Under the pieces are notes generated by a model, which was given only the letters and a program-made list of their open reading frames with translations, had not been told where the DNA came from and did not search any database. Source: a virus (Duplodnaviria; Heunggongvirae; Uroviricota; Caudoviricetes). From it: a stretch of 5,604 nucleotides of DNA. The stretch is taken from the IMG/VR virus record IMGVR_UViG_2675903289_000011. The stretch is one strand, 5' to 3'. The first letter of the stretch is position 1. Every line of letters starts with the position of its first letter. The position numbers were made by a program, and so were the translations under genes. Below are positions 4,986-5,604 of the stretch, one piece after another.

Positions 4986-5543
4986 TTAAAACCGCATCAA
5001 CCTTTCCACCAATTGTTCTTTACGGGCAACGATCCACCCATGTTGCTCCAGATAAAATTTAAACCGTTCCAGAGTGCATACCATCGCATCGGCGGGGACT
5101 TTTTCTGTGAACTCGACCTGACCGTGTTTATCGAAGTGGATCAGTAATGCGCATCCATTATTTGGGGCGGGGGAGTTTTGTGCTGCAGGAGGACGTTTGT
5201 GGAGTTCTTCTTCCATTGCGTTAAATTTTTCAATGTAAGCTTCTTTTAGTCTGGCTGCTTTTTTGCCAGTAAATCCCATTACGAGGAACATGAAGCCGTC
5301 TTTTGTGATCAGGTAGCATCGTGATTCACGTTCTGCGCCGTTGCCAATTTCGACAGTCTGAACATCGGCCGAAAAGTTGGCTGATGTAAATTCGGGAGAG
5401 CAGTCGAGTGTGTCAATCTTAGCTAAAACGTGTTTATGTTGTTTATCGAAGTAGTCGGCAACAGCTTGAGAGGTGGTAACCAGGCGACCATCTTTGAAAA
5501 AGACTTTTGGTGACTCGTTAGAAAAAGTTATAGCTGTATTCAT
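4986..5543 (-). CDS. Rha-family phage regulatory protein (pRha N-terminal domain) with an uncharacterised ~70-aa C-terminal extension
   Basis: ATG at 5541-5543 with GGAG 7 nt upstream; the ORF-track TTG start at 5558 is trimmed. MNTAITFSNESPKVFFKDGRLVTTSQAVADYFDKQHKHVLAKIDTL...CYLITKDGFMFLVMGFTGKKAARLKEAYIEKFNAMEEEL matches the pRha signature as I recall it (vtTS..iA..FgKrHdnVLrdI ... DGf.lLvMgftGkkA...k..yI..Fn.me). Confidence 0.8.
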   Translation of the reverse strand: MNTAITFSNESPKVFFKDGRLVTTSQAVADYFDKQHKHVLAKIDTLDCSPEFTSANFSADVQTVEIGNGAERESRCYLITKDGFMFLVMGFTGKKAARLKEAYIEKFNAMEEELHKRPPAAQNSPAPNNGCALLIHFDKHGQVEFTEKVPADAMVCTLERFKFYLEQHGWIVARKEQLVERLMRF

Positions 5544-5554
5544 ATGTGATGACT

Positions 5555-5604
5555 CCAATTAATTGGATGATCACCACCTCTGACGCCAATCAGGGAGGTG
5601 GTGA
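5555..5604. promoter_or_regulatory. Two perfect palindromes just upstream of the Rha gene: CCAATTAATTGG (5555-5566) and TCACCACCTC-14 nt-GAGGTGGTGA (5571-5604); candidate operators
   Basis: The 12-bp palindrome overlaps the Rha ribosome-binding region. The second is a perfect 10-bp inverted repeat with a 14-nt spacer that reaches the last base of the window, so it may be truncated. Confidence 0.35.

Follow-up and report, generated by a model that had tools for sequence, protein, structure and literature searches.

We begin by considering how a phage gene at the edge of a stretch of DNA is controlled, and what its product may do. The stretch is the 5,604-nucleotide (nt) IMG/VR virus record IMGVR_UViG_2675903289_000011, called here the window, and the gene is rha, which lies near its last position and is read from the minus strand. 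An initial annotation, made from the letters alone, placed the product in the Rha family, took two perfect palindromes directly upstream for repressor operators and likened the arrangement to the immI antirepressor module of P22. We propose, with a probability of roughly 0.75, that rha is the cargo gene of a riboregulated antirepressor cassette of the IsrK/C4 type, resembling immI of P1, at the right end (attR, in ompW) of a lambdoid Escherichia coli prophage of about 50 kb. Judged from sequence, Rha synthesis would most likely be switched off by a small antisense RNA and not by a protein repressor. The underlying principle is already known from P1/P7 and from Gifsy-1.

The first step is to look for what drives and what precedes rha. 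Positions upstream of the window are given on a near-identical prophage locus of E. coli strain 4/1-1 (L001; window coordinate = L001 coordinate minus 4141). A scan of window positions 4800 to 5604 gives no promoter-like and no terminator-like site. The only good promoter is found about 350 nt 5' of rha, outside the window: a sigma-70 promoter, TTGACA-18-TATATT, at L001 9956-9927 on the minus strand, with 11 of 12 positions matched. Directly downstream of this promoter Rfam places isrK (RF01394; L001 9846-9920, minus strand; 72.2 bits against a gathering score of 50), and an intrinsic terminator is called at the IsrK end. Between IsrK and rha stands a C4 antisense RNA (RF01695; L001 9735-9822, minus strand; 75.9 bits against a gathering score of 45). 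IsrK carries at the expected places the elements a1 (UUGGCG) and b1 (CAUCACAA; L001 9872-9879, minus strand). Read 5' to 3', the order is promoter, IsrK (a1, b1, terminator), C4, a2 hairpin, b2 and rha. The remark in the initial annotation that no repressor gene is visible within the window is correct, since the C4 gene reaches into it by no more than its final 11 nt. The same pair of isrK and C4 is also found 5' of antirepressor-type genes in Gifsy-1, VT2-Sakai, phiV10, phi296 and an Stx2c phage.

The features of rha and its leader, in window coordinates, are the following.
4986 to 5543, minus strand: rha gene, 185 amino acids, stop codon at 4986-4988 (RefSeq WP_001348267.1 in L001; PHROG 995 over the full length, E=2.4e-66).
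5553 to 5556, minus strand: Shine-Dalgarno sequence GGAG of rha, read from the sequence, 9 nt 5' of the AUG.
5545 to 5553, minus strand: b2 target GUCAUCACA, located between the Shine-Dalgarno sequence and the start codon of rha, with a single nucleotide left before the AUG; a 9-nt perfect complement of UGUGAUGAC.
5571 to 5604, minus strand: a2 hairpin, which is the inverted repeat; outer stem UCACCACCUC/GAGGUGGUGA, inner stem CUGA/UCAG, fold energy -23 kcal/mol.
5584 to 5589, minus strand: UUGGCG, the a2 target, displayed in the loop of the hairpin; it is the complement of CGCCAA (a') in C4 and does not vary among the loci.
5594 to 5604, minus strand: 3' strand of the basal stem of C4, formed by the last 11 nt of its gene; the remainder of the gene is at window-equivalent 5605-5681, past the window end.
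5540 to 5604, minus strand: last 21 of the 45 codons of orf45, whose UGA stop (5542-5540) overlaps the start codon of rha in an AUGA junction.
5555 to 5566, no strand: 12-nt palindrome CCAATTAATTGG, the predicted apical stem of a hairpin sequestering the Shine-Dalgarno sequence.
5546 to 5577, minus strand: predicted hairpin of 13 base pairs (bp), interrupted by a 2-nt bulge; pairing of GUGGUGAU (5577-5570) to GUCAUCAC (5553-5546) would bury the Shine-Dalgarno sequence of rha.

The list of open reading frames (ORFs) gives the gene as 4986-5558 from a TTG; the ATG at 5543, with GGAG upstream, is the likelier start.

What, then, is the longer of the two palindromes? The inverted repeat has the arms TCACCACCTC (5571-5580) and GAGGTGGTGA (5595-5604), separated by a 14-nt spacer, and immediately precedes the start of rha when the coding strand is read; both it and the 12-mer are present as described in the initial annotation. 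When the unmasked window is shuffled with its dinucleotides preserved, perfect 10-bp inverted repeats with a spacer of 3-30 nt are expected 0.13 times, and 9% of the shuffles contain at least one. For a comparison across phages we use 126 loci from IMG/VR and GenBank (L002 to L006 and the IMG/VR loci L007 to L126 included), which share the conserved 3' part of C4 and were collected with a search pattern that fixes the 5' arm of the repeat. The 3' arm hardly changes over these loci, and an alignment of six loci shows no variation in the arms UCACCACC/GGUGGUGA or in the loop core GAUUGGCGUC. The inner 4-bp stem does vary: among 26 distinct variants it is 92% paired, with 25 double-change cells against 8.4 in shuffles (reached in 0 of 500) and compensatory changes in three of its four pairs. 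The inner and outer stems are not both complete in the register tested for this covariation, because G5580 is shared between them. The distal arm (5595-5604) is at the same time the 3' strand of the C4 basal stem, i.e., the 3' end of the C4 RNA. The energy of the a'/a2 duplex taken alone is not distinctive, being reached by 51 of 500 shuffles. In P1, read by eye, an equivalent hairpin is possible around its own a2, with the different sequence CCUGCCACC...GGUAGCAGG and eight of nine positions paired. On this comparative evidence, the inverted repeat is a conserved RNA hairpin presenting a2.

The next question is whether b2, the second target, is matched to its antisense RNA. The complement of b2, UGUGAUGAC, sits in the hairpin loop of the C4-like RNA (b', GUUUUGUGAUGA), and the b'/b2 duplex has an energy of -13.8 kcal/mol, reached by 1 of 500 shuffles. 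Among the collected loci this loop varies while a' stays constant, a constancy that is partly built into the search pattern, and the 126 loci reduce to 21 distinct C4 loop types. For these types the perfect complement of the loop, located at or just 5' of the Shine-Dalgarno sequence of the next gene, has a mean length of 8.2 nt, compared with 4.3 nt when loops and genes are cross-paired, a difference reached in none of 10,000 permutations. The loop has a complement in its own IsrK as well; for 16 of 20 types its place is fixed, at a distance of 8-14 nt on the 3' side of the a1 loop (6.65 nt against 4.6 nt; 0 of 10,000). Since the loop matches both IsrK and the ribosome-binding site, IsrK contains a matched a1 and b1 copy of the a2 and b2 target, and we infer from these sequences that IsrK may serve as a decoy for C4.

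We turn our attention to the systems in which related cassettes have been studied. In the Gifsy-1 report (PMC4825925), a subset of IsrK transcripts reads through the terminator to give a translationally silent mRNA, short IsrK supplied in trans raises anrP translation about 100-fold, expression of anrP requires the translation of orf45, and AnrP raises antQ mRNA and induces the prophage. That report also describes a processed RNA from the orf45 region, STnc1160, which its authors liken to the CI RNA of P4. The matched a1 and b1 in IsrK fit the experimental activation of translation by short IsrK. The isrK-orf45-anrP-isrJ locus of Gifsy-1 (Salmonella, Hershko-Shalev et al. 2016) and the present locus have in common the promoter, IsrK with its terminator, a C4/STnc1160-like RNA overlapping a 45-codon ORF, the AUGA junction, the conserved UCACCACC...GAUUGGCGUC...GGUGGUGA hairpin and a homologous C-terminal domain in the cargo. 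They differ in the loop, which is UCGGUGAU in Gifsy-1 and GUUUUGUGAUGA here; in isrJ, which has no counterpart after rha; in the cargo, ORF6N there and Rha here; and in the location, beside the Q gene in Gifsy-1 but beside attR, after tail-fibre genes, in the present prophage.

In P1, the C4 RNA blocks the synthesis of Ant (PMC8198154, PMC8546580). The curated P1 GenBank record lists promoters with a C1 operator (Oc4), a1, b1, a 77-nt C4 RNA, a2 and b2 upstream of icd; ant1 overlaps the end of icd by 4 nt, and in the sequence b2 covers the Shine-Dalgarno sequence of icd. The immI region of P1/P7 (c4-icd-ant1/ant2) thus shares with our locus the order a1, b1, C4, a2, b2, with b2 at the ribosome-binding site of the first regulated ORF. 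The placement and function of a2 agree too: it is presented by a hairpin, and the 5' arm of this hairpin is supplied by the 3' terminus of C4. In both, a leader ORF and the antirepressor gene are coupled through an overlap of 4 nt, and what is regulated is an antirepressor (PMC8198154), here a putative one. Unlike P1/P7, the present locus has no icd, for which there is no room because C4 is separated from rha by only about 50 nt, and b2 lies directly on the ribosome-binding site of the cargo. Ant1, moreover, contains an ANT/KilAC domain, and its comparison with Rha gives no significant similarity. A counterpart of the C1 operator at the P1 promoter was not found in the present locus, where no search aimed at it was made.

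With the RNA elements in place we can return to the proposal that the palindromes are operators, at which a small Mnt- or Arc-like repressor would act on an rha promoter as in immI of P22. The perfect symmetry of both sequences and their place immediately 5' of the gene would suit operators. The 61 nt 5' of rha, however, would be part of a transcribed and translated leader, inside an ORF and an RNA and at a distance from the only good promoter, and pairing within RNA, supported by covariation, accounts for the 10-bp repeat. A palindrome like the 12-mer can be expected by chance, because the shuffles of the window give 1.15 perfect 12-nt palindromes on average and at least one in 67% of cases; it lies in the non-conserved linker between a2 and the ribosome-binding site of rha and is absent in the five other aligned loci. 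Neither P22_AR nor ANT homology is found, and when the sequence is extended beyond 5604 in search of small ribbon-helix-helix or helix-turn-helix repressor genes, the sole ORF between rha and the prophage end is one over the RNA genes. We therefore regard operator control as very improbable. The comparison with P22 nevertheless contains a valid part: immI of P22 (ant, Mnt, Arc) is also a secondary immunity module that silences an antirepressor in the lysogen from outside the main immunity region, and an immI-type antirepressor module is what we propose here. What does not carry over is the P22 mechanism, as this locus has no arc or mnt genes, no promoter operators and neither P22_AR_N nor P22_AR_C, and the control would be exerted by an RNA, C4.

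A possible role of the 12-mer comes from folding. The 256-nt leader has a minimum free energy fold of -97.6 kcal/mol (z=-4.6) in which the C4 structure forms and the 12-mer is the tip of the hairpin holding the Shine-Dalgarno sequence. When the part inside the window is folded alone, the a2 hairpin forms instead, at -23 kcal/mol. Since the folds differ, both hairpins and the C4 stem are predicted to be mutually exclusive alternatives. Complementarity of the 3' arm to the ribosome-binding site averages 7.3 nt over the loci against 5.5 nt in shuffles, a weak difference, so the sequestering hairpin is kept as a prediction.

The leader has also been read as protein. RefSeq annotates a 91-residue coding sequence of the "ash family" that ends in ATGA on the rha start and matches Pfam Phage_ASH (PF10554) with 53.8 bits and E=2.9e-14. 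It is thus conceivable that the inverted repeat is the coding part of a real upstream gene coupled to rha or that it is an intrinsic terminator. The annotated TTG start of this coding sequence is the -35 hexamer of the promoter, so that it lies 5' of the transcript. An invariant 28-nt block is read in all three frames across the loci, and the ORF from the conserved ATG is erratic in length, running for 15-72 codons or continuing in frame into the cargo without a stop; many database entries are Ash-Rha or Ash-AntA fusions. The three-frame reading and the erratic ORF length indicate that the conservation follows the RNA, and that the Pfam Ash match reflects the conserved RNA. The terminator has been rejected, as there is no T-run after the hairpin and no terminator was called in the scan; the repeat is also not part of a longer one, since its pairing stops at 10 bp. 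We consider both versions of this explanation quite unlikely. From the reading-frame comparison, the "ash family protein" is largely a translation of RNA genes, and at most a short leader peptide of irrelevant sequence. Ash-family matches at L001 9681-9956 (minus strand) and in the proteins P0028, P0093, P0101, P0152 and P0167 are translated isrK and C4 RNA genes. The ORF that we retain, orf45, opens at ATGGTGGGG, with its ATG at the 5' end of C4, and overlaps C4; its length and its AUGA junction are identical to those of orf45/anrP in Gifsy-1.

What kind of protein does such a cassette control? The coding region of rha divides as follows.
5208 to 5477, minus strand: Phage_pRha domain, residues 23-112 (Pfam PF09669, E=3.4e-27); AlphaFold2 predicted local distance difference test score (pLDDT) 75-91; winged-helix-like fold.
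5154 to 5195, minus strand: linker, about residues 117-130, of low confidence (pLDDT below 50 for residues 120-130).
4989 to 5153, minus strand: AnrP-C-like domain, residues 131-185, a beta-hairpin and two helices, without a Pfam family.

The assignment to the Rha family holds, the PF09669 match scoring 95.3 bits against a gathering score of 29.9 and covering the full model length. The AlphaFold2 model of the full protein has two domains (pLDDT 76) joined by a disordered linker at residues 120-130. The C-terminal region is likewise as the initial annotation described it, unassigned: for the last 55 residues or so, nothing is found in Pfam, the PDB or BFVD. Identity with KilAC/ANT or P22_AR_C has been rejected, as Pfam reports nothing and hhalign against P22_AR_C gives a probability of 0.1%. 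Modelled alone (58 residues), the C-domain has a confident fold (pLDDT 87.9), a beta-hairpin followed by two helices, and it has a homologue in the C-terminus of AnrP: BLASTP aligns the C-terminal 65 or so residues of Rha to that of Gifsy-1 AnrP with 32% identity and E=3e-6. Because of this alignment, and because it is covered by PHROGs 995, 25059, 2379 and 340, the domain is not an orphan. It is rare: a profile search finds 94 clusters among 1.84 billion representatives. A tblastn search with the 60-residue C-domain against deposited phages gives no match, and full-length Rha is in no deposited phage among the matches listed, the best of which span the N-domain only.

The two-domain build resembles that of the proteins that combine Rha (PF09669) and shuffled KilA-N, Bro-N, ORF6N and AntA modules with a swappable C-terminal part, and differs from them in a C-module that has neither a Pfam family nor a structural match. 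Among the sequences sampled, the N-terminal partners of the C-domain are six, namely Rha, ORF6N, Bro-N, KilA-N, AntA and P22_AR_N, and the Rha N-domain is also found with other C-termini. Cargo proteins of the cassette include a near-identical C-domain fused to an ORF6N N-domain and joined in the linker; in ORF6N proteins with this C-domain the junction is at KQPPA(A/T)QNSP. Judging from these fusions, the linker is the recombination junction between the N- and C-modules. Aligned over their full length, the relatives differ little in the N-domain and greatly in the C-domain, a contrast that would suit recognition of a partner, and the variable C-domain is likely to be the partner-recognition module.

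An alternative accepts the RNA control and doubts the antirepressor: Rha could be a DNA-binding transcription regulator, or could interfere with growth in the manner of the Rha of phi80, without binding a repressor. The winged-helix-like N-domain, whose best PDB matches, although weak, are winged-helix DNA binders, would agree with this, as would the RefSeq name, transcriptional regulator. The rha gene of phi80 is said to have been defined, by Henthorn and Friedman in 1995, through inhibition of phage growth in IHF mutants. The C-domain, on the other hand, is common to proteins with the antirepressor-type N-domains AntA, P22_AR_N, KilA-N and Bro-N, Ant in P1 is under the control of this cassette, and expression of AnrP induces Gifsy-1. 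We consider a regulator that does not act as an antirepressor possible but rather unlikely.

Combining the elements, a working model of the riboregulated antirepressor cassette can be assembled. Most transcripts would end at the IsrK terminator, and those that read through it would carry C4, orf45 and rha. C4, in cis or as a processed RNA in trans, would pair a' with a2 and its loop b' with b2; this pairing would block the access of ribosomes to rha, and the local hairpin would also bury the Shine-Dalgarno sequence. Short IsrK, with a1 and b1, would be the decoy that frees the leader, so that orf45 would be translated and rha would be translated by coupling. Rha might then counteract the LexA-family CI, or otherwise activate early and late transcription, as proposed by analogy with AnrP in Gifsy-1. 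The primary immunity genes of the prophage, a LexA-family CI of the self-cleaving type (WP_000103687.1) and Cro, are about 47 kb from rha (L127 1453-2434 = NZ_CP023844.1 1442452-1443433), and this CI is the obvious candidate partner for an antirepressor.

Several points weigh against this model. The model for the present locus is drawn wholly from sequence comparison, and sequence cannot separate an action of C4 in cis, in trans or in both. The C4 homologue STnc1160 was not seen to act as a simple repressor in the co-expression test of the Gifsy-1 report (PMC4825925). AnrP, from which the function is carried over, has itself a putative biochemical activity, and its N-domain is ORF6N where that of the present cargo is Rha. 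The c4-a1b1 motif (RF03163) scores 43.8 bits here, just below its gathering score of 46.7. The b2 target is in the spacer between the Shine-Dalgarno sequence and the AUG, whereas in most loci it lies over the Shine-Dalgarno sequence. The AUGA coupling is common to the Gifsy-1 type only; in other loci the leader ORF is 15-72 codons long or forms a fusion with the cargo. Finally, no isrJ-like RNA is found 3' of rha by Rfam at E<=1, and there is no convincing terminator in that flank, whose fold is not distinctive (z=-0.4).

We consider next where the cassette resides and whether it is likely to be alive. In L001 the prophage is lambdoid, about 50 kb long and largely intact, and retains immunity, replication, lysis, head and tail genes. 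The rha gene is its penultimate annotated gene; the "ash family protein" coding sequence is the last, followed by a 3' ompW fragment beside the trp operon. The prophage end abuts this fragment next to trpA (L001 10141-10281, plus strand), which places the attachment site within ompW, and transcription of the rha cassette runs inward from the attR end. The surroundings might suggest that the module is an inactive relic at a decayed prophage end: nearby are pseudogenes, a lom gene with an inserted IS21-family element, and tail-fibre and recombinase genes reduced to truncated pieces. However, the promoter, both RNAs, orf45 and rha are all intact, over 400 complete E. coli genomes have them with at least 99% identity, all the a/b complementarities are preserved, and the rest of the prophage keeps its main gene sets. 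A relic is in our judgment unlikely. The final 745 nt of the window have matches in 1,143 of 5,426 complete E. coli genomes, 446 of them with a query coverage of at least 80%. The genomes carrying the exact cassette presumably include ST131 strains.

The position of the cassette varies between phages: Gifsy-1 has it beside Q, Stx phages have it in the nin region, phiV10 has it beside a tail-fibre gene, and in the present prophage it is at attR. The cargo genes that it drives in the collected loci encode at least three types of N-domain. With positions and cargo both varied, the cassette behaves as a mobile module.

The remainder of the window holds features of other kinds. Positions 2037-3626 contain 1,478 bases masked as N, with unmasked islands of 52 and 60 nt, and many of the ORFs listed there are artefacts of this masking. 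Facing tail-fibre-assembly genes are found at 287-850 (plus strand) and 879-1412 (minus strand), with alternative tail-fibre C-terminal fragments adjoining and a truncated recombinase gene near them (L001 7340-7519); the region looks like a decayed invertible host-range segment of the Gin/Pin/Cin type. At 4328-4531 (plus strand), on tail-fibre-assembly pseudogene fragments, Rfam IS009 (RF02111) scores 110.8 bits, just below its gathering score of 117, and a second, weak match to the same family falls at 633-822. A class I S-adenosylmethionine-dependent methyltransferase gene at 3580-4248 (minus strand), its 3' end masked, stands between tail-fibre remnants and is probably a moron.

What would these findings mean for the family? 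A tentative extension of the cassette model, to which we give somewhat less than even weight, is that specificity is programmable in two layers: the C4 loop, b2 and b1 would co-evolve as a triplet, and the C-domain, swapped among six N-domains, would set which repressor is attacked. The sections of the Gifsy-1 report considered here (PMC4825925) describe neither a decoy match at b1 nor direct targeting of the cargo ribosome-binding site. If the extension is true, the loop types, at least 20 in number, would be private "RNA immunity" channels, and IsrK a dedicated sponge for its own antisense RNA; the covarying triplet of loop, ribosome-binding-site target and IsrK decoy would illustrate, with a case from nature, how an antisense RNA and its sponge can be matched. 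The C-domain would be an un-named antirepressor module, found behind multiple N-domains. The comparison would also correct a recurrent annotation artefact, by which RNA genes are translated into Ash coding sequences and Ash-Rha fusions. The exact cassette is present in about 8% of complete E. coli genomes (446 of 5,426), labelled only "ash family protein" and "Rha family transcriptional regulator", and in these genomes an RNA-gated antirepressor would provide a testable route of prophage induction, one that may be independent of the SOS response.

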